Source: Candidatus Subterrananammoxibius californiae
GTDB taxonomy: Bacteria > Planctomycetota > Brocadiia > Brocadiales > Subterrananammoxibiaceae
Direction: 5' to 3'
Length of the DNA: 24,000 nucleotides
Assembly: GCA_030586555.1 (NCBI GenBank)
Contig: JAURAC010000003.1
Location: forward strand, 84,073 to 108,072
This document shows, piece by piece, positions 4,445-23,823 of the stretch. Under the pieces are notes generated by a model, which saw nothing but the letters and a program-made list of their open reading frames with translations, ran no database searches and had not been told where the DNA came from. Numbering within the stretch: the first letter of the stretch is position 1; each line of letters begins with the position of its first letter. A program made the translations under genes and the position numbers.

Positions 4445-4479
4445 GTGCGTAATGAGCTATGAGCAATGAACTACGAGCT
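4445..4479. repeat. Heptanucleotide array upstream of the def promoter
   Basis: (GTGCGTA) ATGAGCT ATGAGCA ATGAACT ACGAGCT. The same unit family occurs at the ddl-ftsQ junction. Confidence 0.6.
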
Positions 4480-4487
4480 AAATTGCC

Positions 4488-4516
4488 TTGCTTTTTTGGC
4501 ATGCTGTGCGTATAAT
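4488..4516 (+). promoter_or_regulatory. Putative def-fmt promoter
   Basis: TTGCTT (4488-4493), a 17-nt spacer, then TATAAT (4511-4516). The def ATG at 4526 is only 9 nt past the -10 box and has no SD. Confidence 0.5.
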
Positions 4517-4525
4517 TATTTTATC

Positions 4526-5074
4526 ATGGAAATTGTAATTTATCCTGCACCTGTATTAAGATTAAAGGCTAAACCCGTAGAGGAGATAGATGATACTGTT
4601 TCCCAGCGTGCTGAGGAGATGCTGGAATTGATGTATGAGGCAAAAGGAGTGGGTCTTGCTGCGCCGCAAATAGGCTGGTCTAAGCGTCTAATCGTCAAAG
4701 ATGTTGCAGGCGAGAAGATAGACGACAAGGTTTTTATAAATCCAGTTATCATTGAGGAAAAAGGAGAGGTTATAGAAGAAGAGGGCTGCTTAAGTTTTCC
4801 GGGTGTATTAGGAAAGGTAATGCGCGCTGAGCAGGTGGTGGTAATTGCTTACAACCTGAAAGGCGAGAGGCTCGAATTTGAAGCTGTAGGATTGGATGCT
4901 CGTGTCTGGCAGCATGAGATTGACCATATTGATGGACGCCTTTTTATTGATAAGATGAGCCCTGCAAGCCGATTGGCCGTTTCAGGGCGATTAAAAGAAC
5001 TCGAACGAGAATACCAAAAACGGCAGTCAAGTTATCAGATATCAGCACCAAGTAAGCTGAAAGCTGATGTATGA
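4526..5074 (+). CDS. def: Peptide deformylase
   Basis: All three deformylase motifs are present: GVGLAAPQIG, EGCLSFPG and HEIDHIDG. The track ORF begins at 4466 inside a heptamer repeat. The conserved N-terminus MEIVIYPAPVLR begins at the ATG at 4526. Confidence 0.9.
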   Translation: MEIVIYPAPVLRLKAKPVEEIDDTVSQRAEEMLELMYEAKGVGLAAPQIGWSKRLIVKDVAGEKIDDKVFINPVIIEEKGEVIEEEGCLSFPGVLGKVMRAEQVVVIAYNLKGERLEFEAVGLDARVWQHEIDHIDGRLFIDKMSPASRLAVSGRLKELEREYQKRQSSYQISAPSKLKADV

Positions 5075-6063
5075 ACATAGTTTTTTTGGGAACATCTGAC
5101 TTTGCTGTGCCCAGCTTGCGTTCTTTGGCAGCCTCTAAGCACAAGATTTTGGCAGTGGTTACGCAGCCCGACAGGCCAAAGGGAAGAAGCAGCCAACCCT
5201 GCCCGTCTCCTGTTAAAGCGGTCGCCGATGAATACGGTTTGCGTGTAATTCAACCTGAAAATGTTAATCATCCAGAAACTGTTTTACTATTGGAGGAGAC
5301 GCGTCCCGATATTATTATAGTAGTTGCTTATGGTCAGAAGCTTTCCCAGCAAATTTTATCTATACCTAAATATCAATGTATCAATATACACGCCTCCTTA
5401 CTCCCGAGGTATCGGGGTGCAGCGCCTGTAAATTGGGCAATCATAAACGGGGAGGATGTTACAGGGGTAAGCATTATAATAATGGGAGAGCGAATGGATA
5501 CTGGCGACATTATCGCCCAGCGCTCATTATCAATATACCCTCATGAAACCGCAGGTGAATTAGAAAAACGTCTCGCCCCGTTGGGCGCCGAAGTTTTACT
5601 ATTTGTACTGGAACAACTTGAGAAAGGCACTGTAATTTCCAAAGCGCAGGATGATGCTAATGCAACCTATGCGAAAAAGTTAAAAAAAGAAGACGGCAGG
5701 ATAAATTGGAACCAGGATGCAAAGAGGATACACAATTTCGTCAGAGGGATGACGCCTCGTCCATGCGCATATACATATCTTTCTAAGGCAGATAAAAAAA
5801 TTAGAATAATTATTTTGAAAACAGAAATAGGCACTGTGTGGCATGGACAAACTTGTTTGTCCGTGAAACCACAGCCTGGTGATGTCATTGACATCTCAGC
5901 TAAAGGGATAAACGTGGCAGCAATTGATACAGCTGGTGCTGACTTCGTTCCAAGTATCTTGATTACCATGCTACAGCCCGAGGGTAGGCGGTTAATGAGC
6001 GCAGCAGAATTTATTCGAGGGCATAGTATTAAAGTAGGAGACCATTTCAACTCTATACCATAA
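5071..6063 (+). CDS. fmt: Methionyl-tRNA formyltransferase
   Basis: N-terminus MNIVFLGTSDFAVPSL plus the HASLLPRYRGAAPVNWAIING motif. Its start overlaps the def stop in an ATGA junction, giving the classical def-fmt pair. Confidence 0.9.
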   Translation: MNIVFLGTSDFAVPSLRSLAASKHKILAVVTQPDRPKGRSSQPCPSPVKAVADEYGLRVIQPENVNHPETVLLLEETRPDIIIVVAYGQKLSQQILSIPKYQCINIHASLLPRYRGAAPVNWAIINGEDVTGVSIIIMGERMDTGDIIAQRSLSIYPHETAGELEKRLAPLGAEVLLFVLEQLEKGTVISKAQDDANATYAKKLKKEDGRINWNQDAKRIHNFVRGMTPRPCAYTYLSKADKKIRIIILKTEIGTVWHGQTCLSVKPQPGDVIDISAKGINVAAIDTAGADFVPSILITMLQPEGRRLMSAAEFIRGHSIKVGDHFNSIP

Positions 6064-6069
6064 GTAGCA

Positions 6070-6089
6070 GTGGCGGATTAACCCGCCAC
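6070..6089. other. Hairpin after the fmt stop: GTGGCGG-attaac-CCGCCAC
   Basis: A 7-bp GC-rich stem lies 7 nt after the fmt stop codon. It is followed by an A-rich run rather than a U-rich one, so it is not a canonical intrinsic terminator. Confidence 0.4.
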
Positions 6090-6120
6090 ATAATAAAAAT
6101 AAAGGGGAGAACTTATAGCT

Positions 6121-6600
6121 ATGGAAGTGCTTGATAAGAAATTTGTATCGTTAAACAATCTGATGACCAGGTTAAGGAATAAGAAGTGTTCACCAGGCAG
6201 TTTGTTGCTTTTGTTTCCCCACTGCATACAATATTCTAAATGCAAGCAGAATATAAATGCAGATTTAGCAGAATGCAGACGCTGTGGCAAATGCAAGGTC
6301 AAGGATTTGTTGGAGCTTTCTGAAGAATACGGGGTTAGTATTGCTATAGCAAATGGAGGCAGGATTGCGCTCCAGAGGGTTATGGCTGACGAAGTAAAAG
6401 GCGTAATAGCAATTGCCTGTGAGAAAGAACTCCGCTTAGGAATTATGGCAGCCCTTTCTAAGAGGGTACTTGGAGTTGCCAATCTAAGACCTCATGGATA
6501 TTGTGTGGATACCGATGTCGTGCTTGACGACGTAAGAAAGGCTATTGAGCAGTTTTTAGAACGACCCCCTGTTTCAAACAGCGAATCCCCCTCGACTTAA
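6121..6600 (+). CDS. DUF116-family Cys-rich protein (soluble domain only)
   Basis: The motif pattern LLLFPHCIQ..C....C(RR)CGKC....GG....GVIAIACEKEL matches my recollection of DUF116/COG1852. It lacks the N-terminal membrane segment usually seen in this family. The 3' end overlaps the convergent gene by 27 nt. Confidence 0.55.
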   Translation: MEVLDKKFVSLNNLMTRLRNKKCSPGSLLLLFPHCIQYSKCKQNINADLAECRRCGKCKVKDLLELSEEYGVSIAIANGGRIALQRVMADEVKGVIAIACEKELRLGIMAALSKRVLGVANLRPHGYCVDTDVVLDDVRKAIEQFLERPPVSNSESPST

Positions 6601-8136
6601 AGGTAGAATATCTTTGTTAATCAGTGGGCAATTTTTTGCCCTAACATCAGGAGGAATAGGAAGGCCCAAAAACCCACCTTCTTCTCGATTATAAAGCTCG
6701 TATATTAGGAAATCTTTAGTCTCTTCTCTTTGTTCGTTTGTTAAAATACCCCCGTCCTTTTTCGAAGGCTCTTTTATCAAAATACCCCCATTCTCCTTCG
6801 AAAGTACTTTTGTTAAACTACCTTCGTTCTTCTCTGAAAGCTCTTTATCTATTTGAAGTACCCACCTCGTGCCATGAGCAAAAGGCATTTTAGGTGAAAA
6901 ATCTTTTGAAAATGTAAACCCCCCTCCATCGCAATAACACTCTCTAACAAATTGTTTAATCCTCTCTATTTTATCTTTCTCAATTTTCAAACCTAAAAGG
7001 TTCATAATGCGGAGGGCAAAATAGGTACCGTTTGTTGAGGCTATTCTTCCCTCAGAAGCACCATATCCACCCCGTTGTTCATCCCAGCATCTATCTATAA
7101 ATTTTAAAAATTTAGTCTTTTTCTCATCATTAAAGAACTTGTTGCGTAATTTAGTGAATTCTTCCTTATAATAAGGTTTATCGCCCATTAACGATAACGC
7201 AAAAGATGTGGCGGACATGGTCGGTTTTTTTTGGGAAGGGCTTGGGGCAAAGCCTAAGGCAGAGCCATCGACGTCGATAGACTTTTCACAGTTTTCTATA
7301 TAGTTTTCAATTTCAGACTTTGGGATTAGTTCAAATAATTTGTTCTCCCTATTCAATGACCAAAATAGTCTACTTAATAAGTACGTTACGCATATTCCGT
7401 CAGTCGTATTATTTCCTGGTTGGTCGTAAACATAATGAATATTATCCTTCAATTCTACACAACTTCTAATAAACTCGTTTAACTTAGTATCTCTCCACTC
7501 AATTATCTTTTTAAGGAACTCATTTGTGTTTCCATTATTAATTAATTTTTCCTTTATTGGTATGCCAAGTGCATGTTTTATCACCTCTATTGCATTAGAA
7601 GTTCCATAAATACTGACTTTCTCTTCTTTCCCGTTAGGGGTAGGGAACGGAACAATGCTATAACCTCCTTGTTTCTCATCAAAGCACCTATTTACAAAGT
7701 TGAGGATCCTATCCTGATTATGTTTAATAAACCCTCCGTCTTTTAATAAAGAGAGGCTTACTAAAGCGGCACGAGTAGTATCTATACTTCTTTGTAACCA
7801 ACAATACATGTAATCCCTGAAGCCTGGCTCTAATCCGATATCACTACTTCTTAGCAAAACAAGCATAGCGTTACCCACGTCTCGCTTGGCTTCTTCTCTT
7901 AGTTCTGCGTCTTTAATAGAAAAGATGCATGGTTTAATGTAGGAGGGGAGTACAGGAGGCTGTAGCTGTAAAGGTGGCATTTGAAGCGCTTTTTCTACTG
8001 GTGGATCTCCTCTCATAGACCAATAAATAAATATCCCACCTAAAAAGATAAGGCTGGAAAAGAATAGGATATTCATGAATAGTTCATTTATGCTCACTAT
8101 CCCTCCAACGCTTATCCCAGAAAACCATCTTCTCAA
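6574..8136 (-). CDS. Membrane-anchored protein with prenyltransferase / squalene-cyclase-type (alpha/alpha toroid) repeats; function unknown
   Basis: There is an N-terminal TM segment (NILFFSSLIFLGGIFIYWS). A motif recurs four times: ILNFVNRCFDEKQGGYS, LKFIDRCWDEQRGGYGA, IKQFVRECYCDGGGFTF and DFLIYELYNREEGGFLG. An alternative start at the ATG at 8076 (MNILFF...) would remove the 53-nt overlap with the upstream gene. Confidence 0.6.
   Translation of the reverse strand: MRRWFSGISVGGIVSINELFMNILFFSSLIFLGGIFIYWSMRGDPPVEKALQMPPLQLQPPVLPSYIKPCIFSIKDAELREEAKRDVGNAMLVLLRSSDIGLEPGFRDYMYCWLQRSIDTTRAALVSLSLLKDGGFIKHNQDRILNFVNRCFDEKQGGYSIVPFPTPNGKEEKVSIYGTSNAIEVIKHALGIPIKEKLINNGNTNEFLKKIIEWRDTKLNEFIRSCVELKDNIHYVYDQPGNNTTDGICVTYLLSRLFWSLNRENKLFELIPKSEIENYIENCEKSIDVDGSALGFAPSPSQKKPTMSATSFALSLMGDKPYYKEEFTKLRNKFFNDEKKTKFLKFIDRCWDEQRGGYGASEGRIASTNGTYFALRIMNLLGLKIEKDKIERIKQFVRECYCDGGGFTFSKDFSPKMPFAHGTRWVLQIDKELSEKNEGSLTKVLSKENGGILIKEPSKKDGGILTNEQREETKDFLIYELYNREEGGFLGLPIPPDVRAKNCPLINKDILPLSRGGFAV
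6743..6804. repeat. 36-nt tandem duplication inside the toroid-repeat gene
   Basis: AAAATACCCCCGTCCTTTTTCGAAGG (6743-6768) recurs as AAAATACCCCCATTCTCCTTCGAAAG (6779-6804). The two copies encode SKENGGILIKEP and SKKDGGILTNEQ. Confidence 0.7.
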
Positions 8137-8506
8137 ACGCTATTACCCAGAAGAAAATAATAAGTATTATAAACAGGAATGCAGCTGGTTCGGTGGGTTT
8201 AAATGGTTTGAAAAGGTCAAGAGCTCTCTCGAAAAAGCTAATCAAAAGGACAACGAAAAATGAGAAAAATAGAGGAATGCTATATTTTTTGATTCTGTAC
8301 CAGAAACCTCCCTTCCGGTTTTGGCATACGTTTGCAAAACTCTGGGCAAGTAAGACTACCGCTATTCCACACAAGAAAAGGAGTGCAATTGCATATCTGA
8401 GCGGAAAGTCTGGTGATAAAGATTCTTTGGGCGAAGGTTTTTCAAGAATGATATACGTTAACCAGACTGCAATAAATGCACCGAAGAAATGATTAATTGC
8501 ACCCAC
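8084..8506 (-). CDS. Small integral membrane protein (4 predicted TM helices), function unknown
   Basis: 140-aa ORF with a GTG start at 8506. A perfect SD precedes it (AAAGGAGG, then a 6-nt spacer, read on the minus strand). There are four hydrophobic stretches. It is the first gene of the operon divergent from mraZ. Confidence 0.6.
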   Translation of the reverse strand: MGAINHFFGAFIAVWLTYIILEKPSPKESLSPDFPLRYAIALLFLCGIAVVLLAQSFANVCQNRKGGFWYRIKKYSIPLFFSFFVVLLISFFERALDLFKPFKPTEPAAFLFIILIIFFWVIAFEKMVFWDKRWRDSEHK

Positions 8507-8593
8507 TAATTTCCTCCTTTTTCAGCTCTATTAAAAGTTATTTAGTAACCATGTACTTAAAGAAGTTAAGAAGTATAGAGTTGAACTATTTTA

Positions 8594-8617
8594 TCCCACC
8601 CCCCCCACTTCATCCCA
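8594..8617 (-). promoter_or_regulatory. Putative MraZ operator, mirror copy: three TGGGN boxes on the minus strand
   Basis: The minus strand reads TGGGA-tgaag-TGGGG-gggg-TGGGA, with boxes at 8617-8613, 8607-8603 and 8598-8594. It lies about 90-110 nt upstream of the GTG at 8506. Confidence 0.5.
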
Positions 8618-8632
8618 CATTGTAACACTTAA

Positions 8633-8659
8633 TTTATACCTTTTTTTCGTCATTGTCAA
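8633..8659 (-). promoter_or_regulatory. Putative sigma70-type promoter for the divergent operon
   Basis: The minus strand reads TTGACA (8659-8654), a 15-nt spacer, then TATAAA (8638-8633). The spacer is short. The module is colinear with the mraZ promoter module. Confidence 0.45.
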
Positions 8660-8718
8660 GAAATTTTTTATAGGCGTTTTCACAAATTTTTTTAAAAATC
8701 CACCACGTTCTAACACTA

Positions 8719-8768
8719 CAATATATTGATGTAATATCTTTTTCTAAGTCAATATATAGTTGATGTAA
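8719..8768 (+). repeat. Direct repeat in the AT-rich divergent spacer
   Basis: CAATATATTGATGTAA (8719-8734) and CAATATATAGTTGATGTAA (8750-8768). Confidence 0.6.
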
Positions 8769-8811
8769 AAATATACAAAAAAATTTTCTAAAAATAATAA
8801 TAAAATTTTTC

Positions 8812-8839
8812 TTGACAAAGGAGAAAAAAGGTTTATAAA
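8812..8839 (+). promoter_or_regulatory. Putative Pmra-like promoter of the dcw cluster
   Basis: TTGACA (8812-8817), a 16-nt spacer, then TATAAA (8834-8839), 42 nt upstream of the mraZ ATG. Confidence 0.55.
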
Positions 8840-8855
8840 GGCAAGTGTTATATTG

Positions 8856-8880
8856 TGGCAAAAAGTGGGGAGAAATGGGG
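8856..8880 (+). promoter_or_regulatory. Putative MraZ operator: three TGGNN boxes at exact 10-bp phasing
   Basis: TGGCA (8856), TGGGG (8866) and TGGGG (8876), each followed by a 5-nt spacer. The last box abuts the mraZ ATG at 8881. This matches the TGGGN direct-repeat operator described for E. coli MraZ. Confidence 0.6.
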
Positions 8881-9312
8881 ATGCTCACGGGAACCTTCTG
8901 TCACGCCTTAGACGAAAAAAACCGTTTATCCATTCCATCCAAATGGAGAAAAGACCTCGAAAAGGATGGAAAGGAAGTATACGTCACTCCTGGTTTGGAT
9001 CAATGTCTTTTCATATTGTCCTCTCTTCAGTTTGAAGAACTCGCACAAAAGGTCAAACAGCTTCCTTTTACAAAGGAAAATGTGCGGTCCTTTTTGCGGC
9101 TCTTTTTTTCCAAAGCTTCTCCGCCCCTTGAATTTGACAAACAGGGCAGAATCTTAATACCTCAGTTTTTAAAAGACCATGCCGAGATTGATAAGGAAAT
9201 AGTCCTCGTTGGTGTATACGACAGGATTGAAGCATGGAACCCAAAACTCTGGGATAGTTTCAACTCACAAAAGGAGGGGTCTTTTGAAAAGATTGCAGAA
9301 ACCCTCTTTTAA
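8881..9312 (+). CDS. mraZ: Transcriptional regulator MraZ
   Basis: MLTGTFCHALDEKNRLSIPSKWRKDL plus a second half-repeat FDKQGRILIPQFLKDH, giving the duplicated DxxxR MraZ/SpoVT-AbrB fold. The track start at 8845 is an upstream extension. Confidence 0.9.
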   Translation: MLTGTFCHALDEKNRLSIPSKWRKDLEKDGKEVYVTPGLDQCLFILSSLQFEELAQKVKQLPFTKENVRSFLRLFFSKASPPLEFDKQGRILIPQFLKDHAEIDKEIVLVGVYDRIEAWNPKLWDSFNSQKEGSFEKIAETLF

Positions 9313-9355
9313 GTCTTCATCTGAACAAGAAGTCCTTTTGTTTTTTATTATATTT

Positions 9356-10279
9356 ATGATGTCAGGGACGATTAAAAATATACCCATCCATAAACCAGTG
9401 ATGGTCGAGGAAGTCCTGGGATTTCTCAGACCACAGCCGGGTAAAATTATTGTTGATTGTACAATAGGGACTGGAGGGCATGCAAGTGAAATCTTGAAAA
9501 GAATTGAGCCCGGAGGGATATTAATTGGAATTGATAAAGACGAAGAAATGTTAAAAATAGCAAAAGAACGCCTTGGGGCTATTGGCAATTCCTTCAGGCT
9601 TTTTCATGCAGACTATGCTAACTTAGGGCTTGTTTTAAAGGAGGCAAATATTGAAAGGGTTGATGGAGCGCTTCTGGACCTCGGTGTTTCCTCACCTCAA
9701 CTGGAGATACCTGAACGAGGTTTTAGTTTTGATAAGGAAGGTCCTCTTGATATGAGAATGGACAGGTCGGGAGGTATTACAGCCTCTAATTTGCTTGGGA
9801 AACTTTCTGAGAGGGAAATGGAGATTACCTTCAGGAGATACGGCGAGGAACGCTGGTCAAGAAGGATTGCTCGGGTTATCCTTCGAGAACGGAGTAAAAG
9901 CCGTATTGAGACAACTACGCAACTGGCAAATATAATAGAGCGTGTGGTACCTCCTGTCCGCCCAAAAGCTGGCGGACGTGGAAGGATTCATCCGGCAACG
10001 CGTGTTTTTCAAGCCCTTCGTATCGCCGTAAATAAGGAACTTGAAAGCCTTGAGTATTTGTTAAATCATGTGCACGAGTTTCTAACTACAGGCGCACGCA
10101 TTGTGGTCATAAGTTTTCACTCTTTAGAAGACCGTATCGTAAAAAATGCCTTTCGCAATGGCGCTCAGGATTCGAACCTAAAAATTTTGACCCAAAAACC
10201 TCTGATGCCACGAAGTGCAGAAGTTATTGAAAACATTAGAAGTAGGAGCGCAAAACTTCGTGTGGCGGAAAGGGTCTAA
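9356..10279 (+). CDS. rsmH: 16S rRNA (cytosine1402-N4)-methyltransferase
   Basis: HKPVMVEEVL, TIGTGGHA, DLGVSSPQL, HPATRVFQALRIAVN and SFHSLEDRIVK motifs. The track start at 9209 overlaps mraZ; the ATG at 9356/9359 gives a typical ~307-aa protein. Confidence 0.9.
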   Translation: MMSGTIKNIPIHKPVMVEEVLGFLRPQPGKIIVDCTIGTGGHASEILKRIEPGGILIGIDKDEEMLKIAKERLGAIGNSFRLFHADYANLGLVLKEANIERVDGALLDLGVSSPQLEIPERGFSFDKEGPLDMRMDRSGGITASNLLGKLSEREMEITFRRYGEERWSRRIARVILRERSKSRIETTTQLANIIERVVPPVRPKAGGRGRIHPATRVFQALRIAVNKELESLEYLLNHVHEFLTTGARIVVISFHSLEDRIVKNAFRNGAQDSNLKILTQKPLMPRSAEVIENIRSRSAKLRVAERV

Positions 10280-10286
10280 AGGAATA

Positions 10287-10673
10287 ATGATTAGTAAATT
10301 CTTGCCTTTGGTAGGAATTACTGTTATAATGACACTATTTATTGTATGGGAACAAGTTCAGACTACAAAATGTGGTTATAAGGTGGCAGAACTGCAAAAG
10401 AAGATAACCGACCTTCAGGAGAAAAACAGAAGGCTTGAGTGTCAGGTAAGCGCCCTGAAAAAACCCGAGCGGGTTGTCAATGCAATTCAATCCATGGGGA
10501 TTGACCTTGCGCAACCCTTAGAGAATAAAGATATGATAGCAAAGACAAAACAGCCCGGTCCTCAGAGGGGTCGAACAACTAATACTATCGTTGCTTCTGC
10601 CAGAGCCGAGCTTGGCCCCCTCGGCAGAGGCAAAGAGGTGAAAAAGCAAAAAGGTGGAAAGGTAAAGAGGTAA
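10287..10673 (+). CDS. ftsL: FtsL-like cell division protein (single TM plus coiled coil) with a basic low-complexity tail
   Basis: It sits in the position of ftsL. It has a TM segment (FLPLVGITVIMTLFIVW) followed by a coiled coil (VAELQKKITDLQEKNRRLECQVSALKKPERV). The start is the ATG at 10287, just after the rsmH stop. Confidence 0.65.
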   Translation: MISKFLPLVGITVIMTLFIVWEQVQTTKCGYKVAELQKKITDLQEKNRRLECQVSALKKPERVVNAIQSMGIDLAQPLENKDMIAKTKQPGPQRGRTTNTIVASARAELGPLGRGKEVKKQKGGKVKR

Positions 10674-10703
10674 AAAAGAGCCTTTCAACCTTTGGTGCAT
10701 TAT

Positions 10704-12419: not shown

Positions 12420-12454
12420 AATGGGATGTGTCCCTATTAAAGGGAGGCGAAAAA

Positions 12455-12886: not shown

Positions 12887-12924
12887 AAAGCATCCGCCTG
12901 AGGCGGGTCGAACTTGCTTTTCAC
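12883..12924. repeat. Compound hairpin in the accB-murE spacer
   Basis: GTGAAAAGCA (12883-12892) pairs with TGCTTTTCAC (12915-12924). These enclose CCGCC-tga-GGCGG (12894-12906) and GGGTCGAACT (12905-12914). No U-tract follows. Confidence 0.7.
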
Positions 12925-12931
12925 TCCCCCG

Positions 12932-12950
12932 ACCCAAGCACTGCTTGGGT
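12932..12950. repeat. 19-nt palindrome ACCCAAGCA-c-TGCTTGGGT
   Basis: Perfect 9-bp arms. It is followed by CCCCG-N9-CGGGG (12952-12970). Confidence 0.7.
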
Positions 12951-12976
12951 GCCCCGAAGAGAAGACGGGGGTGTGT

Positions 12977-12996: not shown

Positions 12997-13006
12997 AAGT
13001 GTTTGT

Positions 13007-14476: not shown

Positions 14477-14477
14477 A

Positions 14478-14500: not shown

Positions 14501-14507
14501 GAAAAGA

Positions 14508-14696
14508 ATGGTCATAAGGTGCTCTGTATGCAAAAAGATTAAGAAATTTGGCAAGTGGATTGAGGTACCTAAACCTCTTGAAGAAGAAATGAAAGAAGTT
14601 CCTGTCCTTTTAGTTCTTTGTGAAGACTGTAGAAAGGAGACATCTACCGTCATAAATCCGCCGGACACCGCAAAATACAGGGCAGTTTGTTTTTAA
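14508..14696 (+). CDS. Small zinc-ribbon-like protein (CxxC...CxxC), 62 aa, function unknown
   Basis: MVIRCSVCKK...LVLCEDCRKE has two CxxC pairs about 30 residues apart. It shares the dcw-type leader motif and fills the murE-murF gap. Confidence 0.5.
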   Translation: MVIRCSVCKKIKKFGKWIEVPKPLEEEMKEVPVLLVLCEDCRKETSTVINPPDTAKYRAVCF

Positions 14697-14701
14697 TTGG
14701 G

Positions 14702-14757
14702 CTATAGGCGACAGGTCATAGGTTAACTCCTATTACCCATAGCCAATCACCTACAAT
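14702..14757. repeat. Heptanucleotide array upstream of murF
   Basis: CTATAGG CGACAGG TCATAGG TTAACTC CTATTAC CCATAGC CAATCAC CTACAAT. The outer arms form a dyad (GGCTATAGG with CCCATAGCC). Confidence 0.65.
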
Positions 14758-14772
14758 AAAGGAGACAGCACG

Positions 14773-16224
14773 TTGGGACCGATTAGCGCAATTGAAATAG
14801 CACAAGCCGTAAGAGGGCAGATTAAGCACGGTAAGGGAGAAAGCCGTTTTGTCAGAATTTCCAGGGACAGCAGGCATATCTTACCTGGCGATTTATTTGT
14901 TGCACTGAAAGGTGAACGTTTTAACGGTCACGATTTCGTCTTAGATGCGCTCGCCGGAGGGGCTGCGGGGGTAATGGTAGAGACGCAAGATTTTGCGTCT
15001 CTACCAGGCTTTCTTAATGTATCAAATACAGATGTGGTGGTGATATTTGTAAACGACACACTTAAAGCGTTGGGAGACCTTGCAGCATACTATCGCCAGA
15101 AATTACCCACCCATATTATTGCTGTTACAGGCAGTAACGGCAAGACGACCACAAAAGATATAATTCATCACCTTTTAAGCCAGTGTGCAATGGCAACCAA
15201 ATCTCCAGAAAGTTTTAATAATTGCATCGGCGTACCGTTAACGATTTTTGAACTCAACAGTCAGACAGATTTTGGGATAATTGAGATGGGTACAAATGCG
15301 CCCGGGGAGATTAGAAGATTATCAGAAATTGTCCGACCACACACTGCTGTCTTTACGAACATCTCTGAAACACATCTGGAGGGTCTTGGAAGCGTAGAAG
15401 GCGTTGCAAAAGAAAAGGGGGAAATGCTTAATTACATTGATAAAGATGGAACAATAGTAATTAATGCCGACAACGTCTGGTGTAACAAGATTGCTAAGAG
15501 TTTTTCGGGGCGAATCATTAGATTCGGGATTAACAACCAGGCACAAATTAAGGGTTCAAACGTTAGCCGCACTGATTTAGGATTAGCTTTTACCGTTAAT
15601 GACGACTTCAGAGTAAATGTGCCATTTTATGAAATCCACAATGTTTATAACTGCCTTGCAGCTTTAGCCGTTTGCTACTCGCTGGGCTTTGATATTGAGA
15701 AATTAAGCAAGACTCTCTTACGCTTCCGCCTCCCCGCAATGAGGATGGACAGGCAAAATATAGGTGATATAGCAGTCATTAATGATGCATACAATGCTAA
15801 TCCGCAGTCCATGCTTGCCGCATTAAACGAATATAGTGAAATGAAGGTACACGGAAGAAAAATCTTTATATGTGGCGATATGTTAGAACTCGGAAATCAT
15901 GCAGAACGCCTTCATAAGGAGATTGGGATTAAGGTTGCTCACGCAGGTATTGACCTTTTGCTAACTGTAGGTAAACTCTCAAGATACGTTGCAGAATCTG
16001 CAACCGCACACGGAATGGCGAAAGAAAATACAATGTGCTATGACAGTTTAGGTGAGCTTCTTGCATCTATAGTCTATTGTTTGAAAGACGGCGATACAAT
16101 ACTTATAAAAGGGTCCAGGCGAATAGGGCTGGAAGGTATCATTGAACGAATCGAGTCCTATTTTGCCAATAGGGACAAATTTACTTCTTTGAAAAGAAGT
16201 AAGTCCGCTATAATTTCCGGATAA
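14773..16224 (+). CDS. murF: UDP-N-acetylmuramoyl-tripeptide--D-alanyl-D-alanine ligase
   Basis: VTGSNGKTTTKD P-loop, NDAYNANP and GDMLELG motifs. The TTG start at 14773 lies 7 nt after AAAGGAGA. Confidence 0.9.
   Translation: MGPISAIEIAQAVRGQIKHGKGESRFVRISRDSRHILPGDLFVALKGERFNGHDFVLDALAGGAAGVMVETQDFASLPGFLNVSNTDVVVIFVNDTLKALGDLAAYYRQKLPTHIIAVTGSNGKTTTKDIIHHLLSQCAMATKSPESFNNCIGVPLTIFELNSQTDFGIIEMGTNAPGEIRRLSEIVRPHTAVFTNISETHLEGLGSVEGVAKEKGEMLNYIDKDGTIVINADNVWCNKIAKSFSGRIIRFGINNQAQIKGSNVSRTDLGLAFTVNDDFRVNVPFYEIHNVYNCLAALAVCYSLGFDIEKLSKTLLRFRLPAMRMDRQNIGDIAVINDAYNANPQSMLAALNEYSEMKVHGRKIFICGDMLELGNHAERLHKEIGIKVAHAGIDLLLTVGKLSRYVAESATAHGMAKENTMCYDSLGELLASIVYCLKDGDTILIKGSRRIGLEGIIERIESYFANRDKFTSLKRSKSAIISG
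14976..15005. repeat. GTAG-family palindrome inside murF
   Basis: GGTAGAGACGCAA-gatt-TTGCGTCTCTACC with 13-bp perfect arms. It is read in frame as VETQDFASLP. Confidence 0.85.
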
Positions 16225-16256
16225 AGCATCTTCCTGGAAAATTATAAGGTTTTTGG

Positions 16257-16285
16257 CTTACCTTTCTTGAAAAAGGTAAGAGAGG
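16257..16285 (+). promoter_or_regulatory. Conserved leader motif upstream of mraY (CTTACCTTT-cttgaa-AAAGGTAAG-AGAGG)
   Basis: A 9-bp stem. AAAGGT begins 21 nt before the GTG at 16293. Confidence 0.5.
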
Positions 16286-16289
16286 ATTA

Positions 16290-17408: not shown

Positions 17409-17424
17409 GTCTAAACTGACAAAA

Positions 17425-17487
17425 GAATTGGAAATTGGAAAATGTAAAATGCAAATTTAAAATTTTCACTTTTCATTTTCCAATTTT
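17425..17487. repeat. Heptanucleotide array with dyad symmetry between mraY and ftsW (possible weak terminator or attenuator)
   Basis: GAATTGG AAATTGG AAAATGT AAAATGC AAATTTA AAATTTT CACTTTT CATTTTC CAATTTT. AATTGGAAAATG (17433-17444) pairs with CATTTTCCAATT (17474-17485), followed by TTTT. Confidence 0.65.
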
Positions 17488-17517
17488 TTGCTGATATCTC
17501 AAAATTATACTATTTCT

Positions 17518-18663: not shown

Positions 18664-18676
18664 GGGTCAAACAACT

Positions 18677-19870
18677 ATGAATCTAATGTTTGCAGGAAGT
18701 GGCACTGGCGGGCACCTATTGGTAGGTTTGGGTGTTGCAGAGGAAGTAAAAATGCAATTCCCCGATTCAAAGATACTCTTCTTCGTAACTGGAAAAGACA
18801 TTGAAATACGATGCGTCTCAAAAAGGGGATTCGAGGTTCTTCCACTTAACGCAAGCCCATGGAAAAAATCCGTTTTACATATCCCTGAATTTGTTTTTAG
18901 ACATTTTAAGGGCATCTTCCGTTCCTTGAAGACCATTAAACAATTTAAACCCGATGTAGTCGTAGGTTTGGGTGGATATAGCTCCGTCCCGCCGTTAGTA
19001 GCCGCACTCCTGCTTGGTGTTCCCTATGTTCTGCTGGAACAAAACGTGATTCCTGGAAAGGCAAACAGGCTGATGGCAAGATGGGCTAAAGGGGTTTACT
19101 CCCACTTTCCCGAATGCGGAGTGCGGATTTCGGATTTAGGAATTCCTCATTTGCAGGTTACTGGCACACCCATTCGCAAGGGCATCTTGGATATGGATAG
19201 AGAAAAGGCTGCAAAAACACTCAAGTCCACCAAAATAATCGGCGGACTCGCCAATCTTTTTGGCGAGCTATCCCCATTTAAAAAAACGCTCTTAGTTATG
19301 GGAGGAAGCCAGGGCGCCAAATCAATTAACGATGTAATTATACAATGTCTTCCAGAGCTGGAAAAACTTTCACAGACGCTACAAATTATACATTGTGCCG
19401 GGGAAGCTGATTATGAAAGAGTGAGGTCTTCTTATAGCAAGAAAGTGATAAACGCACTTGTTTGCGGGTTCTTAGACAATATTGGCGCCGCATACAGTCT
19501 TGCGGATTTGGTTATATGTCGTGCTGGTGCAACTACAATCGCTGAGGTTACAGCCGTTGGGATTCCTGCAGTATTTGTCCCGTATCCTTATGCCACTGAT
19601 AACCATCAGTATTGGAACGCTAAGGCAATAGCAGAGAAAGGAGGTGGTATTATTATTGAAGAAGCAGCGCTAACGCCTCAAAGGCTTCTAAAGGTGATGA
19701 GTGAGGTCTTACAGGATGATAAAAGGCGTCTAAAGATGAAAAACGTTAGTAAATCTCTTGGAAAACCTGATGCTACTACTGTAATAGTCAATTTAATATG
19801 CCATATAATTGAACGTAATACAAGTATTGGTAGACAACGGACTTTATGTCCGTTGAAATCAACGATGTAA
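18677..19870 (+). CDS. murG: UDP-N-acetylglucosamine--N-acetylmuramyl-(pentapeptide) pyrophosphoryl-undecaprenol GlcNAc transferase
   Basis: MNLMFAGSGTGGHL (G-loop) and LLVMGGSQGA motifs. The track start at 18635 overlaps ftsW; the ATG at 18677 is preferred. Confidence 0.9.
   Translation: MNLMFAGSGTGGHLLVGLGVAEEVKMQFPDSKILFFVTGKDIEIRCVSKRGFEVLPLNASPWKKSVLHIPEFVFRHFKGIFRSLKTIKQFKPDVVVGLGGYSSVPPLVAALLLGVPYVLLEQNVIPGKANRLMARWAKGVYSHFPECGVRISDLGIPHLQVTGTPIRKGILDMDREKAAKTLKSTKIIGGLANLFGELSPFKKTLLVMGGSQGAKSINDVIIQCLPELEKLSQTLQIIHCAGEADYERVRSSYSKKVINALVCGFLDNIGAAYSLADLVICRAGATTIAEVTAVGIPAVFVPYPYATDNHQYWNAKAIAEKGGGIIIEEAALTPQRLLKVMSEVLQDDKRRLKMKNVSKSLGKPDATTVIVNLICHIIERNTSIGRQRTLCPLKSTM
19114..19141. 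repeat. Four heptamers inside murG
   Basis: ATGCGGA GTGCGGA TTTCGGA TTTAGGA, translated as ECGVRISDLG. Confidence 0.55.
19224..19267. other. Two adjacent hairpins inside murG
   Basis: AGTCCACC-aaaataatc-GGCGGACT (7 of 8 bp paired) and CTCGCCAA-tcttt-TTGGCGAG (8 of 8 bp paired). They encode KSTKIIGGLANLFGEL, in a segment that looks longer than in typical MurG. Confidence 0.55.
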
Positions 19871-19886
19871 AACATCGTTGTCTACC
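19829..19886. repeat. Three-way (Y-shaped) hairpin element spanning the murG stop; GTAG-family outer stem
   Basis: The outer stem GGTAGAC (19829-19835) pairs with GTCTACC (19880-19886). It encloses AACGGAC-tttat-GTCCGTT and AACGATG-taaaa-CATCGTT. The murG TAA (19868-19870) sits in the second loop. Confidence 0.7.
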
Positions 19887-19905
19887 TTCTTTCACAAAGG
19901 TGAGA
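19881..19905 (+). promoter_or_regulatory. Leader motif upstream of murC (TCT-ACCTT-ctttcaca-AAGGT-g-AGA)
   Basis: It has the same CCTT...AAAGGTGAGA architecture as at murE and mraY. An AAGGAGG SD follows at 19908-19914, and the GTG start is at 19923. Confidence 0.45.
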
Positions 19906-19922
19906 TAAGGAGGCTATAAAAA

Positions 19923-21494
19923 GTGCGCTTGGCAACTTTAGATGACCTGTCTGCGTGTGGACACGCACAAGCAGATAAGAATTTATCACCAACGAAACGA
20001 CTCTCAATTACAATTCCATCCTTTCATGTTAAAAATGTATATCTGATAGGCATTGGCGGTACAGGCATGAGTGGGTTAGCCAGGTTATTACTGACAAAAG
20101 GATATAAGGTTTCTGGTTCTGACACACAGCCCTCTCCGACTACCTTTGCACTTGAAAAACTCGGCGCAAGAATCACCAACAAACAAGATGGCAATGGGGT
20201 AAACCCCGAAACGGAACTGGTTATCATTTCTGCTGCAATTACCGAGGATAACCCAGACCTGATGGCTGCCCGCAGTTTCAGCCTGAAAGTGATTAAATAC
20301 TCACAATTCCTGGGTTCTTTAATGAAAGAAAAAAAGGGCATTGCTATAAGCGGCACCCACGGGAAAACAACCACTACCAGTATGGTTTCTACAGTTCTTA
20401 AATATGCTGGTATGGACCCATCATTTGTAATTGGCGGTGTTGTTCCAGAGATTGGGGGGAGTTCGCATTATGGCAAAGGGAATTTTTTTGTCGCAGAGGC
20501 ATGTGAGTACGATAAGTCTTTTCTTTATCTTTCTCCTCATATCGGAGTAATTACTAATATAGAAGAGGATCATCTTGATTATTACAAAAACATCGAAGGC
20601 GTAGTAAATGCCTTTGCCGAGTTTGCCACCTCAATTCCAGAGGATGGTTTGTTAGTAGTAAACAATCAGGACGATAATATAAAGAAGGCTATAAAGGGGG
20701 CTCACTGTAATATAGAAACCTACTCAATGGATGACCCTTTTGCAAACTGGACTGCCACCCGACTGAGGTGGGATAACACATTCGAGGTTTTTCACAATGG
20801 CAGCCCGTTTGGTGAATTCGGACTCAGGATTCCCGGTGTTCATAATGTCATGAATGCACTTGCAACCATCGCTACGTGCACGTTTGCCGGCGTGGAAAGG
20901 CAATCTATCATGGAAGGGTTGGCAACCTTTAATGGAGCACAACGAAGATTCCAGATTATTGACAGCGTAAACGGAATTACCATTGTAGATGACTATGGCC
21001 ATCATCCAACGGAAATTCGCGCCACCCTCAGGGCTGCAAGAGAGAGGTTTCCAGAAGGTAGGATATGGTGCGTATTCCAGCCACATCAATATAGCAGGAC
21101 AAAGTTACTGCTAAAAGATTTTGCCCGCTCCTTTGGTGATGCCGATAAGGTCGTTCTGACGGACATCTTCTCTGCACGGGATAGCGAGGAAGATAAAGCA
21201 GCAATAAACTCGTGCATTCTAACAAACGAAGCCCGCTTGCAGGGCGCTGATGCCCTGTATATTCCTCATATTGATGATGTGCCAGACCTCTTGTGCAGCG
21301 GTCTTATGCCTGATGATGTTGTTATTACCATGGGTGCTGGCGATGTCTGGAAGGTGTCTCGTAGCTTAATATCAAAATTACACGAGCATAAATCAAAAGC
21401 GTCAGGGGACAGGGGTCAAGAGTCAAGAGTTTGGACTCATAACCCAAGACTCATGACACAGGACTTAAATGGAATATTACAACCTGCCTTATAA
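19923..21494 (+). CDS. murC: UDP-N-acetylmuramate--L-alanine ligase, with N- and C-terminal extensions
   Basis: GIGGTGMSGLA and GTHGKTTTTS motifs. The GTG start lies 9 nt after AAGGAGG. The last ~30 aa are read through a heptamer array and overlap murB by 26 nt. Confidence 0.9.
   Translation: MRLATLDDLSACGHAQADKNLSPTKRLSITIPSFHVKNVYLIGIGGTGMSGLARLLLTKGYKVSGSDTQPSPTTFALEKLGARITNKQDGNGVNPETELVIISAAITEDNPDLMAARSFSLKVIKYSQFLGSLMKEKKGIAISGTHGKTTTTSMVSTVLKYAGMDPSFVIGGVVPEIGGSSHYGKGNFFVAEACEYDKSFLYLSPHIGVITNIEEDHLDYYKNIEGVVNAFAEFATSIPEDGLLVVNNQDDNIKKAIKGAHCNIETYSMDDPFANWTATRLRWDNTFEVFHNGSPFGEFGLRIPGVHNVMNALATIATCTFAGVERQSIMEGLATFNGAQRRFQIIDSVNGITIVDDYGHHPTEIRATLRAARERFPEGRIWCVFQPHQYSRTKLLLKDFARSFGDADKVVLTDIFSARDSEEDKAAINSCILTNEARLQGADALYIPHIDDVPDLLCSGLMPDDVVITMGAGDVWKVSRSLISKLHEHKSKASGDRGQESRVWTHNPRLMTQDLNGILQPAL
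21401..21463. repeat. Heptanucleotide array inside the murC 3' end, upstream of murB
   Basis: GTCAGGG GACAGGG GTCAAGA GTCAAGA GTTTGGA CTCATAA CCCAAGA CTCATGA CACAGGA, with an imperfect dyad. Confidence 0.65.
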
Positions 21495-22350
21495 TGAATT
21501 AATTAAACGTAATGAACCACTGAGTCGCTATACTACGTTTGGGATAGGTGGGACGGCTGAAATATTTGCAGAGCCTCGAAACAGCGCGGAGCTTAAGGAG
21601 TTTATAGAGTTCGGCAGGGATAGCAGGCTGCCAATAAACGTTATAGGTAAAGGAAGCAATGTCCTTGTAAATGATAGCGGCGTTAGAGGTATAGTCATCT
21701 ATCTTGCAAGAAACGGTTTTAAACGTGTAAAAAGAGAAAATTCTTCAATAATTGCAGGGGCTGGGGTTAGCCTTCCATTGCTTGTCAACAAGAGTGTGGG
21801 GTGGGGATTGGGTGGTTTAGAGGTGTTAACGGGGATTCCCGGAACAGTCGGAGGCGCTGTTGCCTCAAACGCTGGAGGCAAGTACGGCACAATAAGTGAA
21901 TGCATAATGTCTGTAACAACCATAGACATTGATGGTAGAACTCACCAGTACAACAGAGAGGATATTGACTTCGGATATAGAAAAAATTGCTTTCTTAACC
22001 AAATAATCATCGAGGCAATGTTAAAACTAAAGGAGTGTAACAGAGTAGCGTTGCTGAAGCGCTCCAGGGAAATTCTTCAAGAGAAGAATCTGCGTCAACC
22101 GCTTTCGGCAAAGAGCGCAGGGTGTGTTTTTAAAAATCCCGAGGGCTATTGCGCCGGTGCATTGATTGAACAGGCTGGATTAAAGGGGCAAAGGGTTGGC
22201 GGGGCAATAGTATCAGAAAAACATGCAAATTTTATTATTAATACAGGCAATGCCACCGCAGCCAACGTGCTTGAACTTGTTGACGCGATAAAGGGCGATG
22301 TTTTGCGGAAATTCAACATCTTATTAGAATTAGAAATTCAGGTATGGTAA
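21469..22350 (+). CDS. murB: UDP-N-acetylenolpyruvoylglucosamine reductase
   Basis: The LSRYTTFGIGGTAE FAD-binding N-terminus, GGLEVLTGIPGTVGGAV, and SAGCVFKNP...GGAIVSEKHANFIIN. Confidence 0.9.
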   Translation: MEYYNLPYNELIKRNEPLSRYTTFGIGGTAEIFAEPRNSAELKEFIEFGRDSRLPINVIGKGSNVLVNDSGVRGIVIYLARNGFKRVKRENSSIIAGAGVSLPLLVNKSVGWGLGGLEVLTGIPGTVGGAVASNAGGKYGTISECIMSVTTIDIDGRTHQYNREDIDFGYRKNCFLNQIIIEAMLKLKECNRVALLKRSREILQEKNLRQPLSAKSAGCVFKNPEGYCAGALIEQAGLKGQRVGGAIVSEKHANFIINTGNATAANVLELVDAIKGDVLRKFNILLELEIQVW

Positions 22351-22531
22351 TCGTCGCTCGTGACCCGTCGCCCGTGACTCGAGCAACGAAGAAAGGAGGC
22401 TACCAATGTATAAGTCAACGAATGCGGCAGTTCTAATGGATGAAATATCCTCGGAAAGCGAGGTATCCATCCATTCAGGCGCTACCATAAGCGAGGCGCC
22501 CATAGGAGCAGAACACAATATTATCTTCACC
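22123..22531 (+). repeat. Tandem duplication, unit 1 (murB 3' end + spacer + ddl-like 5' fragment)
   Basis: It aligns codon for codon with 22532-22921 apart from the spacer. The murB-derived parts are offset by 409 nt and the ddl-derived parts by 390 nt. Confidence 0.85.
22351..22392. repeat. Heptanucleotide array between murB and the chimeric ORF
   Basis: TCGTCGC TCGTGAC CCGTCGC CCGTGAC TCGAGCA ACGAAGA. It is absent from the equivalent spacer of duplication unit 2 (22760-22795). Confidence 0.6.
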
Positions 22532-22759
22532 TGTATTTTTAAAAACCCACCTGGCTATTACGCCGGTGCATTGATTGAACAGGCTGGATTAAAGGGGCAA
22601 AGGGTTGGCGGGGCAATGGTATCAGAAGAATATGCAAATTTCATTATAGATACAGGGAATGCCACTGTAACCGATGTGCTTGAACTTGTTGACATGGTAA
22701 GATGCGCCGTTCTGCGGAAATTCAATATCTTATTAGAATTAGAAATTCAGGTATGGTAA
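22406..22759 (+). CDS. Chimeric ORF: Ddl N-terminal 42 codons fused in frame to the MurB C-terminal 75 codons. A duplication relic that may be a pseudogene or a novel small protein
   Basis: MYKSTNAAVLMDEISSESEVSIHSGATISEAPIGAEHNIIFT aligns with Ddl residues 1-42. CIFKNPPGYYAGALIEQAGLKGQRVGGAMVSEEYANFIIDTGNATVTDVLELVDMVRCAVLRKFNILLELEIQVW aligns with MurB residues 219-293. The frame is intact, and it has its own AAAGGAGG SD at the same spacing as ddl. Confidence 0.6.
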   Translation: MYKSTNAAVLMDEISSESEVSIHSGATISEAPIGAEHNIIFTCIFKNPPGYYAGALIEQAGLKGQRVGGAMVSEEYANFIIDTGNATVTDVLELVDMVRCAVLRKFNILLELEIQVW

Positions 22760-22921
22760 GAACCCTTCCACTCGGGGGCGGAAAGGAGTCTGCAAATGTA
22801 TAAGACAAGAAATATAGCGGTCCTAATGGGTGGGGTATCCTCGGAACGAGAGGTATCCCTTCGTTCCGGCACTGCTGTAAGCGAGGCGCTGAAACAAGCA
22901 GGACACAATGTTATCTGTATC
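22532..22921 (+). repeat. Tandem duplication, unit 2 (murB-like 3' fragment + spacer + genuine ddl 5' end)
   Basis: See unit 1. The murB-derived parts share a run of more than 50 identical nt (gccggtgcattgattgaacaggctggattaaaggggcaaagggttggcggggcaat). Confidence 0.85.
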
Positions 22922-23773
22922 GAGGTAAATGATGAAAAGGTTGAGGAGCTTGACAGACATGAGATAGATGTCGCTTTCATTGCGCTTCATGGCTATTTTG
23001 GAGAAGACGGGGGCATACAGAGCCTTCTTGAATCCAAAGGTATCCCTTACACGGGCTCAGGTGTCGAGGCAAGCAGAATTGCAATGGACAAGATAGAAAC
23101 CAAAAGAAGATTCCTCGCCAGAGGTCTATCTACCCCTGATTACGTGTCAATAACCCAATATTATAACATGTCAGAAGTGCAAAGATTTGTTGATATGCTG
23201 GGTTTTCCCGTAATCGTGAAACCCGCAAGAAACGGCTCCAGTATTGGTGTCTCAATGGTAAAAAATCTTGCAGAATTAAAGAAGGGAATAGAAAAAGCCC
23301 TGAAGTTCGGTTCAAAGGCGCTTATTGAAAAACACATCCACGGAAAGGAATTAACGGTAGGGATTCTTGGTAATAATCCTCTTCCTATCATCGAAATAAA
23401 ACCTGCTGTGGAATTTTTTGACTACACAGCAAAATACAATGACAGCAGAACGGAATACAATATGGAAGTATCTCTACCTTCCTCTGTCTATAACGAGGTA
23501 CAACAAGTAGCCCTTAAAGCACATGAAACCATCGGTTGCAAAGGTTTTTCCAGAGTAGATATGATTCTCGAAGAGCAAAATCATGGTCCTAATGGCCTTG
23601 GTCTTGCCAGTCACATTTATCTCTTAGAAATCAATACAATACCAGGATTCACGGAAAAGAGCCTGTTGCCAAAGGCTGCCAGGGCTGCAAATATTGGATT
23701 TGTGGGTTTGTGCGAGACGATAGTCGAGTTTGCACTCCAGGACGTTGAAGCAGGCATAGAAGAATTGGTGTAA
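22796..23773 (+). CDS. ddl: D-alanine--D-alanine ligase
   Basis: VLMGGVSSEREVSLRSG, ALHGYFGEDGGIQSLLE, and an ATP-grasp core ending in YLLEINTIPGFTEKS. Confidence 0.9.
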   Translation: MYKTRNIAVLMGGVSSEREVSLRSGTAVSEALKQAGHNVICIEVNDEKVEELDRHEIDVAFIALHGYFGEDGGIQSLLESKGIPYTGSGVEASRIAMDKIETKRRFLARGLSTPDYVSITQYYNMSEVQRFVDMLGFPVIVKPARNGSSIGVSMVKNLAELKKGIEKALKFGSKALIEKHIHGKELTVGILGNNPLPIIEIKPAVEFFDYTAKYNDSRTEYNMEVSLPSSVYNEVQQVALKAHETIGCKGFSRVDMILEEQNHGPNGLGLASHIYLLEINTIPGFTEKSLLPKAARAANIGFVGLCETIVEFALQDVEAGIEELV

Positions 23774-23774
23774 T

Positions 23775-23823
23775 AATGAGCAATGAGCAACGAGCAATGA
23801 GTAATGAGTCACGAGGAGCGATG
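23775..23823. repeat. Heptanucleotide array at the ddl-ftsQ junction
   Basis: AATGAGC AATGAGC AACGAGC AATGAGT AATGAGT CACGAGG AGCGATG. Confidence 0.7.

Follow-up and report, generated by a model that had tools for sequence, protein, structure and literature searches.

The 24,000-nt stretch of DNA analysed here (the window) spans positions 84073-108072 of contig C90 (JAURAC010000003.1) in the draft genome of Candidatus Subterrananammoxibius californiae, a 96% complete metagenome-assembled genome (MAG) of the order Brocadiales that comprises 3.34 Mb in 150 contigs at 42% G+C and stands alone in its family among species representatives. Its plus strand carries def and fmt, followed by the division and cell wall (dcw) cluster in the order mraZ, mraW, ftsL, ftsI, a gene for a biotin-lipoyl protein, murE, a 62-aa zinc-ribbon open reading frame (ORF), murF, mraY, ftsW, murG, murC, murB, a ddl'-'murB chimera, ddl and ftsQ. 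Runs of imperfect heptanucleotide units occur along this region at seven sites, which an original prediction had likened to the short tandemly repeated repetitive (STRR) elements of cyanobacteria and had taken to punctuate the dcw operon. All seven were found at the coordinates it had given:

4445..4479, no strand assigned: direct ATGAGCT-type array (~4-5 units) 5' of def, in the divergent spacer
14702..14757, no strand assigned: weak inverted pair of CTATAGG-type units, a hairpin, between the 62-aa zinc-ribbon ORF and murF
17425..17487, no strand assigned: A/T-rich inverted pair of AATTGGA/AAAATGN units between mraY and ftsW
19114..19141, plus strand: in-frame TGCGGAG-type array of ~4 units inside murG
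21401..21463, no strand assigned: partly inverted GTCAGGG/GTCAAGA ... GACTCAT array that ends just before the murB start
22351..22392, no strand assigned: TCGTCGC/TCGTGAC array immediately 3' of the murB stop
23775..23823, no strand assigned: direct AATGAGC array (~5-7 units) that separates the ddl stop from the body of ftsQ

The constancy of the 7-nt period was confirmed, in that autocorrelation at each site peaks once, at lag 7, where 0.51-0.81 of positions match; no other lag exceeds 0.36 except at the A/T-rich site 17425-17487 (0.54 at lags 6 and 8), and the shuffle p-value was <=0.0004 at every one of the seven. Tandem Repeats Finder (TRF) scored six of the seven sites with a period of 7, 14 or 21, and the array at 14702-14757 (lag-7 match 0.51, p=0.0004) fell below its threshold. 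The further suggestion that several arrays fold back on themselves held for three sites, at 14702 (-17.9 kcal/mol; z -1.96 over 14695-14765), 17425 (-19.8 kcal/mol; z -3.83 over 17415-17495; a long hairpin followed by a T-run) and 21401 (-20.2 kcal/mol; z -3.06 over 21395-21470), but not for the direct arrays at 4445 and 23775, which are unstructured (z +0.25 and +1.53, respectively).

Several placements could be refined. The first array (TRF period 7/14 at 4451-4480; lag-7 match 0.68, p<0.0002) is indeed upstream of def, lying before a promoter-like site and ~50 nt ahead of the real start of the gene, which is likely to be at 4526 because the Pfam def match begins at residue 21 of the 4466 ORF. 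The mraY-ftsW array (TRF period 7; lag-7 match 0.75) is intergenic, and the murG array (TRF period 7 at 19124-19145; lag-7 match 0.81) codes for ECGVRISDLG, part of a variable loop that separates the two glycosyltransferase domains. The array described as lying between murC and murB (TRF period 7 and 14; lag-7 match 0.66) sits instead within an extended murC ORF, being translated as its non-conserved 3' extension; the MurC Pfam match stops at residue 473 of 523. The array at 22351..22392 (TRF period 14; lag-7 match 0.60) does follow murB, with the correction that the next gene is the chimeric ddl'-'murB duplicate and not ddl. The last array (TRF period 7/21, score 54-61; lag-7 match 0.79) contains TGA and ATG in all three frames. 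Arrays had also been said to occupy most gene junctions, which overstates their reach: they are present at 5 of ~15 dcw junctions or, counted by spacers of at least 45 nt, in four of six.

To place these sites in the context of the genome, array counts were compared with those in sequence shuffled by a third-order Markov model, and a period-7 excess was evident by TRF (762 arrays versus 70 in the shuffle) and by segments of lag-7 self-matching (449 versus 5). TRF counts at periods 14 and 21 were 203 versus 18 and 67 versus 3, and at periods 6, 8 and 9 they were 92 versus 21, 276 versus 90 and 241 versus 94; lags 6, 8 and 9 yielded 58, 102 and 60 segments. The window holds six merged TRF arrays, whereas 24-kb tiles average 6.0 and 50% of them have at least as many as the window, and 16% of co-directional spacers of 45-100 nt genome-wide contain an array. 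Since the density of the window equals the genome mean, the dcw cluster is not special; the arrays fill the spacers that are available there, and nothing points to a dcw-specific role. By location, 218 arrays are intergenic, 39 lie at gene edges and 192 are genic in a genome that is 87% coding, which corresponds to a roughly 6-fold intergenic enrichment with ~40% of arrays inside genes (gene calls approximate genes by the longest ORF, so that 'genic' arrays at 5' ends may precede the true start).

Individual arrays are short (median 3.7 units by TRF; lag-7 segments of ~27-31 nt) and degenerate, adjacent units differing by single bases, and their base composition is ordinary (A 30, C 20, G 21, T 29%). 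Approximately 133 unit classes were distinguished, the most frequent being AGCTATG (25 arrays), AAGGCTG (23) and AAGACTC (20). A unit motif common to all arrays was sought by expectation maximization over rotations and strands and rejected (4.06 bits versus 3.3-3.5 for random heptamers), and a one-mismatch network of units was uninformative, a giant component being expected by chance.

The genic arrays form in-frame segments of DnaG, MnmE, XerC, LpxB, BioF, a PabB/TrpE-like protein, an M16 peptidase and MurG, where they fall in loops and linkers of these conserved proteins. Units with stop codons in both orientations (AGCTATG, AAAATTT, AACTATG) are nearly all intergenic, and units open in one orientation are genic in that open orientation (AAGACTC 16:1, ACTCCTG 0:11, ACGACTC 6:0); intergenic arrays lie in either direction with respect to transcription, without bias. 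This combination is the pattern expected of near-random birth followed by purifying selection. Alignments of three array-bearing proteins give the following lengths:

MurG: 9 array codons, net +2 aa versus 20 aligned homologues
MnmE: ~13 array codons, net +8 aa versus three relatives, +7 versus one and +2 versus one
XerC: ~13 array codons, net +7 to +11 aa versus relatives

By these alignments, arrays overwrite sequence as well as add length. A related observation is a 649-aa ORF (C34:60659-62608) in which a CbiO-like ABC ATPase and a CobD/HisC-like aminotransferase are linked by a SPQPSAF heptamer array free of stops, possibly as a result of array-mediated gene fusion or of the loss of a stop codon.

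Comparisons between strains covered ~70 kb in total, with ~34 kb of non-identical sequence plus two further contig sets at 99.2-99.9% identity. A second assembly (L152) differs from the window from 13.7 kb onward by nine single-nucleotide polymorphisms (SNPs) with no gaps over 10.7 kb, and all six dcw arrays are therefore equal in copy number; the 23775..23823 array is also the same in contigs of two other sequencing runs. Between-strain SNPs touch the 21401..21463 array once within (21414) and once adjoining it (21400). An enrichment of SNPs inside arrays was considered and discarded, because three of nine SNPs lie in or beside dcw arrays but, with automatic boundaries, only 1 of ~67 falls in the 2.9% of bases that arrays occupy. 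Across the ~18 arrays compared (the six dcw arrays and ~12 others) copy number is unchanged, and among ~20 arrays one exact unit change was recovered, (GAAAGAA)3 versus (GAAAGAA)4 at C16:24089. The suggestion that the arrays could be slippage-prone is thus borne out by one 7-nt copy change elsewhere in the genome but not by the dcw arrays, and the arrays are slippage-capable without being hypermutable tracts.

Two loci carry array and non-array alleles. In dnaG (C16:21118-21192) a 75-nt inverted array, (GAGTCAG)4...(GACTCAG)5, occupies the place held in GCA_016198835.1 and GCA_016187585.1 (L159:5452-5523 and L160:2338-2409) by a 72-nt non-repeat linker, with flanks 99.3-99.9% identical. Distant DnaG linkers are of similar length and begin with L-K/R-K-L/F as the non-repeat allele does, so that the array allele appears to be derived. 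The second pair lies just 3' of xerC (42 versus 27 nt). These alleles may have arisen in one step, or they may be old alleles moved by recombination. At C90:108516-108567, 444-495 nt beyond the end of the window, a 52-nt G/C-rich hairpin stands where the other strain has a 19-nt heptamer-like CAATACGAGCAATGACAGC. Further along, C90:109838-109937 is a run of N (an assembly gap) with the same AATAGGC/AATAGCC array on both flanks. No break occurs there in the other assembly, so the array has either interrupted the scaffold or duplicated it.

Beyond the strain level, no relative closer than ~50% MurG identity was found in genome or metagenome collections, the nearest being planctomycetes of the same order (Ca. 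Loosdrechtia, Scalindua and others) at 44-50%; with no sister genome, conservation of array positions can be assessed at the strain and order levels alone. An order survey of 11-80 kb from each of 17 Brocadiales-order genomes returned 29 lag-7 arrays per 60 kb in G012, 12 per 60 kb in G025 and 4 per 80 kb in G017, and 0-2 in the 14 others, so that three of the 17 sampled genomes clearly exceed background, with units peculiar to each. By family, the rest of the order is for the most part poor in arrays, two families being array-rich. In the dcw clusters of these relatives, arrays lie at ftsI-murE and mraZ-mraW in G012, at a single site between mraW and ftsI in G017 and nowhere in G025, and TRF reports 0-2 period-7 rows per dcw locus in Scalindua, Loosdrechtia and other relatives versus five in the window. 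Array positions in the cluster are consequently not kept above the species level, and the idea of an operon punctuated by arrays was not supported, as the density is that of the genome average and relatives have their arrays at other junctions or lack them. Two candidate causes were also set aside. MutL (PF01119, PF08676) was not found in the 96%-complete draft, in which MutS is intact, and 29 of 30 relatives have it; its absence may be a real loss or an assembly gap, and loss of mismatch repair fails as a general cause because the array-rich G012 and G025 both have MutL. Y1 transposases of the REP-associated tyrosine transposase (RAYT) type, as mobilisers, occur in 27 of 31 genomes, whether these have arrays or not.

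The arrays can be compared with several known repeat classes. STRRs are heptanucleotide repeats of heterocystous cyanobacteria (Calothrix, Anabaena/Nostoc). The arrays resemble them in having 7-nt tandem units, several unit families per genome and arrays that number on the order of a hundred or above, most of which lie in spacers, those within operons included; they differ in their host, Planctomycetota rather than cyanobacteria, and in the ~133 unit classes, strong unit drift, third of arrays that are inverted and ~40% in frame within genes. 'STRR-like' is therefore apt for the class (short degenerate heptamer arrays of many unit families) and not for membership of a named family: tandem copies of STRR1-3, TAACTGA, GGGAATC and GGGGAYT are all but missing from the source genome, and tandem 14-mers of STRR1 CCCCAGT, STRR2 TTGGTCA and STRR3 CAACAGT in any rotation number 0, 4 and 0, versus 38-91 for the genome's own top units.

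Heptamers are described as the predominant class of long simple sequence repeats (LSSRs) in several phyla, and slippage with a ~7-nt polymerase footprint has been proposed as the cause (PMC4679880; PMC4692102). With respect to the LSSR survey (Mrazek, Guo and Shah 2007, as summarised in these two papers), the likeness lies in sporadic phylogeny, predominance of 7 nt among 5-11-nt units and intergenic excess, and the difference in its coding repeats, which are mostly of units divisible by three; here 7-nt arrays are common in coding sequence and can replace native sequence without a change in length. A 7-nt excess over composition, a whole-unit copy change and a sporadic, lineage-specific spread were all found in our data. 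The TAACTGA repeats of marine Beggiatoaceae (2-6 copies, ~170 sets per genome; MacGregor 2015, PMC4679880) are likewise heptamer arrays, often near start codons and sometimes inside ORFs including a MurG, and have stops in all frames in one orientation, but they consist of one dominant unit strongly oriented to the downstream gene, in contrast to the many units and absent orientation bias seen here. The GGGAATC / GGGGA(C/T)T repeats of Xanthomonas and Nostoc (~180 heterogeneous arrays in each genome, four units being the usual length; Rehm et al. 2015, PMC4692102) share with them some inverted stem-loop pairs and a length and sequence that vary between close species; they are, however, G-rich and quadruplex-forming with a single consensus, whereas our arrays are compositionally ordinary. 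Rickettsia palindromic elements (RPEs), repetitive extragenic palindromes (REPs) and miniature inverted-repeat transposable elements (MITEs) are comparable as small hairpin repeats in spacers and in frame in conserved protein genes, yet they are insertional and have one fixed-length consensus, whereas the arrays share their period alone and often replace sequence: no common motif or flanks emerged, and net length change is far smaller than array length in MurG, MnmE and DnaG. The Kuenenia genome paper counts 260 short tandem repeats without specifying them, and no literature report of heptamer arrays was found for anammox-related planctomycetes. The arrays described here represent a new lineage for a known repeat class (STRRs, or heptamer long SSRs).

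Taken together, we consider it probable that the seven sites are unremarkable examples of a genome-wide, lineage-specific and selection-filtered class of DNA-level heptamer SSRs. On this model, arrays would be made and remodelled by slipped-strand or template-switch copying in a 7-nt register, copying that could also turn neighbouring sequence into array, and selection would then purge those arrays that add stops or harm proteins. The three hairpins (14.7, 17.4 and 21.4 kb) might incidentally influence where transcripts end or how stable they are.

Several observations weigh against so simple an account. An inverted partner lies within 90 nt of 37% of arrays versus 1.6% of controls, and these inverted pairs, about a third of arrays, fold into hairpins. 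Some arrays belong to dispersed 55-70-nt families of like architecture; the mraY-ftsW site, for instance, is one of a ~55-nt palindromic family with 84-92% identical copies on C47, C61, C56 and C128. The top unit classes, with 25, 23 and 20 arrays, exceed the expectation of random birth in a space of ~1170 classes. Stepwise 7-nt growth in essential genes would have to pass through frameshifts, and the same-length replacement in dnaG (72 nt) is not a product of simple slippage. Finally, genes of the family PF05635, regarded as Avd-like (PMC10053308), tend to be bracketed by inverted arrays, and a similar association is seen in array-poor relatives. Recurrent classes, inverted pairing, same-length alleles and the PF05635 link are unexplained by simple slippage and leave room for active writing or spreading.

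The foremost alternative, which we regard as unlikely, is accordingly that an active mechanism linked to Avd-like PF05635 cassettes writes or spreads the arrays, or in any case those in inverted pairs. In one form, a cassette would consist of an array arm, a four-helix-bundle gene and an inverted arm, with gene-less hairpin arrays as MITE-like derivatives; in another, templated conversion would overwrite local DNA. The source genome has 14 PF05635 matches, of which 11 are clear genes, and arrays lie within ~50 nt on both sides of 5 of these 11 versus 19 of 1001 other small genes (1.9%; Fisher p = 2e-6) and on at least one side of 8 of 11 versus 185 of 1001 (18.5%; Fisher p = 1.5e-4). Bracketed examples are:

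C53:42957-43310, array-bracketed PF05635 gene
C90:143352-143735, array-bracketed PF05635 gene
C118:4349-4711, array-bracketed PF05635 gene
C50:10814-11194, array-bracketed PF05635 gene
C70:25535-25921, array-bracketed PF05635 gene

Below the detection threshold, several further genes have inverted flanks that are visibly periodic. None of the 14 matches lies in the window, so the arrangement of a gene between array arms is found elsewhere in the genome and not at the dcw cluster. Of 20 PF05635 genes in array-poor relatives, 11 carry an array of period 7 or 8 at one end of the gene or at both, and ~9 show inverted-flank complementarity, some of it with period 9. Units of the cassette arms (ACAGTAG, GAGTC-type, AAATATC, AAATTGG, CGTCGCT) are also plentiful in solitary arrays, dispersed ~70-nt (GAGTCAG)n-(GACTCAR)n units share 84-89% identity, and the dnaG replacement allele likewise favours active spreading. 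Against it, PF05635 copy number does not follow array density across the order (20, 14 and 11 copies in G003, G010 and G008, which have few arrays, and five in the array-rich G012), and Y1 transposases are equally uncorrelated with arrays. The listed array flanks show no target-site duplications, conserved termini or conserved flanks, and likeness among arrays of the same unit is expected without common descent. To our knowledge, PF05635 has no nuclease, transposase or polymerase activity. The specific version in which an active, largely sequence-independent conversion overwrites 30-75 nt with 7-nt-periodic DNA, often as an inverted pair and tied to PF05635 cassettes, seems to us distinctly doubtful; if true, it would explain the preference for 7-base repeats in bacteria of many phyla.

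We find it similarly improbable that selection maintains the arrays as cis-acting RNA elements for operon punctuation that set differential expression within the dcw transcript, with hairpin arrays serving as terminators, attenuators, RNase III sites or 3' stabilisers and direct arrays as sites for translational regulators. The better-than-shuffled folding of three dcw sites, including the mraY-ftsW hairpin with its T-run, is what such a role would lead one to expect, as are the ~6-fold spacer enrichment and the AAGGCTG palindromes, in which (AAGGCTG)n, a self-complementary AAAAGATCTTTT-like centre and (CAGCCTT)n stand between A/T-rich flanks and, with A-rich and T-rich sides, resemble bidirectional terminators. 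A translational role has moreover been proposed for the TAACTGA repeats of Beggiatoaceae (PMC4679880). Conservation of the six dcw arrays between strains also agrees with it but, at 99.9% identity, carries little weight, and positions are not conserved in other families, array-rich ones included. The lack of intergenic orientation bias argues against a strand-specific RNA role, and ~40% of arrays are in coding sequence. Density in the dcw cluster is that of the genome, no array site was returned by a simple terminator scan (17 terminator-like sites versus 19.6 expected, no excess), and neither Rfam matches nor tRNAs were present within the window.

That the arrays are contingency loci whose slippage switches genes by phase variation is very improbable: despite the one 7-nt copy difference between strains, and in-frame ATGs in the ftsQ 5' array such that a one-unit change would shift upstream starts, the ~18 arrays are of stable length between 99.2-99.9% identical strains, they are short and imperfect, they are hosted by essential housekeeping genes in which frameshifts would be lethal, and they have no tie to surface or variable functions.

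Other features were noted along the window. A second, smaller repeat class of the source genome has a period of 8 nt and is represented here by one array:

10628..10676, no strand assigned: purine-rich octamer array, AAGAGGYN-type, at the ftsL-ftsI junction, TRF period 8/16

Genome-wide there are 102 lag-8 arrays versus 8 in the shuffle, mostly of the AAAAGGTT/AAGAGGCT classes, and 70 of the 102 lie outside ORFs. Octamer arrays (AAGAGGYN / AAAAGGTN) resemble the Shine-Dalgarno sequence, one of them standing directly upstream of ftsI. Small hairpin elements of other kinds are also present. A 14-bp perfect hairpin, TGGTAGAGACGCAAGATTTTGCGTCTCTACCA, lies inside murF (14975-15006) and belongs to a dispersed family of 32 loci, 20 within ORFs. 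A ~45-50-nt twin-hairpin element lies in frame in murG (19222-19272) as a 13-aa insertion absent from 20 of 20 homologues, with similar copies at 14 loci genome-wide, 13 of them within ORFs; it behaves as in-frame palindromic elements of the RPE type do and is separate from the heptamer arrays. Nesting of such small hairpin elements in arrays, as in the small dispersed repeats (SDRs) of Nostoc, was looked for and rejected (0/7, 0/14 and 2/32 loci versus a 3.3% background). The chimeric gene downstream of murB is part of a tandem duplication (22123-22916) that comprises the murB 3' end (228 nt, 87% identity; 22123-22350 / 22532-22759) and the ddl 5' end (136 nt, 76%; 22391-22526 / 22781-22916). 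The spacers of the two copies are unrelated, that of copy 1 being the 22351-22392 array (40 nt) and that of copy 2 a 21-nt non-array sequence, and the resulting ORF (22406-22759; also called in another assembly) encodes 117 aa, Ddl-like at the N-terminus and followed by a MurB_C domain. The zinc-ribbon ORF between murE and murF (14508-14696; 62 aa, CxxC...CxxC) has a good ribosome-binding site and is also called in the second assembly (L152 761-949). Lastly, murD is absent between mraY and ftsW (window 17409-17487), and a gene order without murD occurs in three other Brocadiales-order genomes (L174-L178), so that its absence from this position is an order-level trait and not a local loss.

For dcw biology, then, the arrays are ordinary. 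For annotation they have practical effects: ORFs are lengthened or fused by them (the tail of murC, alternative starts of ftsQ and the CbiO-CobD ORF), and they coincide with an assembly gap. The near-identical strains constitute natural experiments, with one unit change and two array/non-array loci, one of them in the essential primase gene, and these polymorphisms, along with the bracketing of PF05635 genes, provide handles on how heptamer repeats are born. Heptamer arrays are a long-known peculiarity of certain bacterial genomes, which is now extended to anammox-related planctomycetes.

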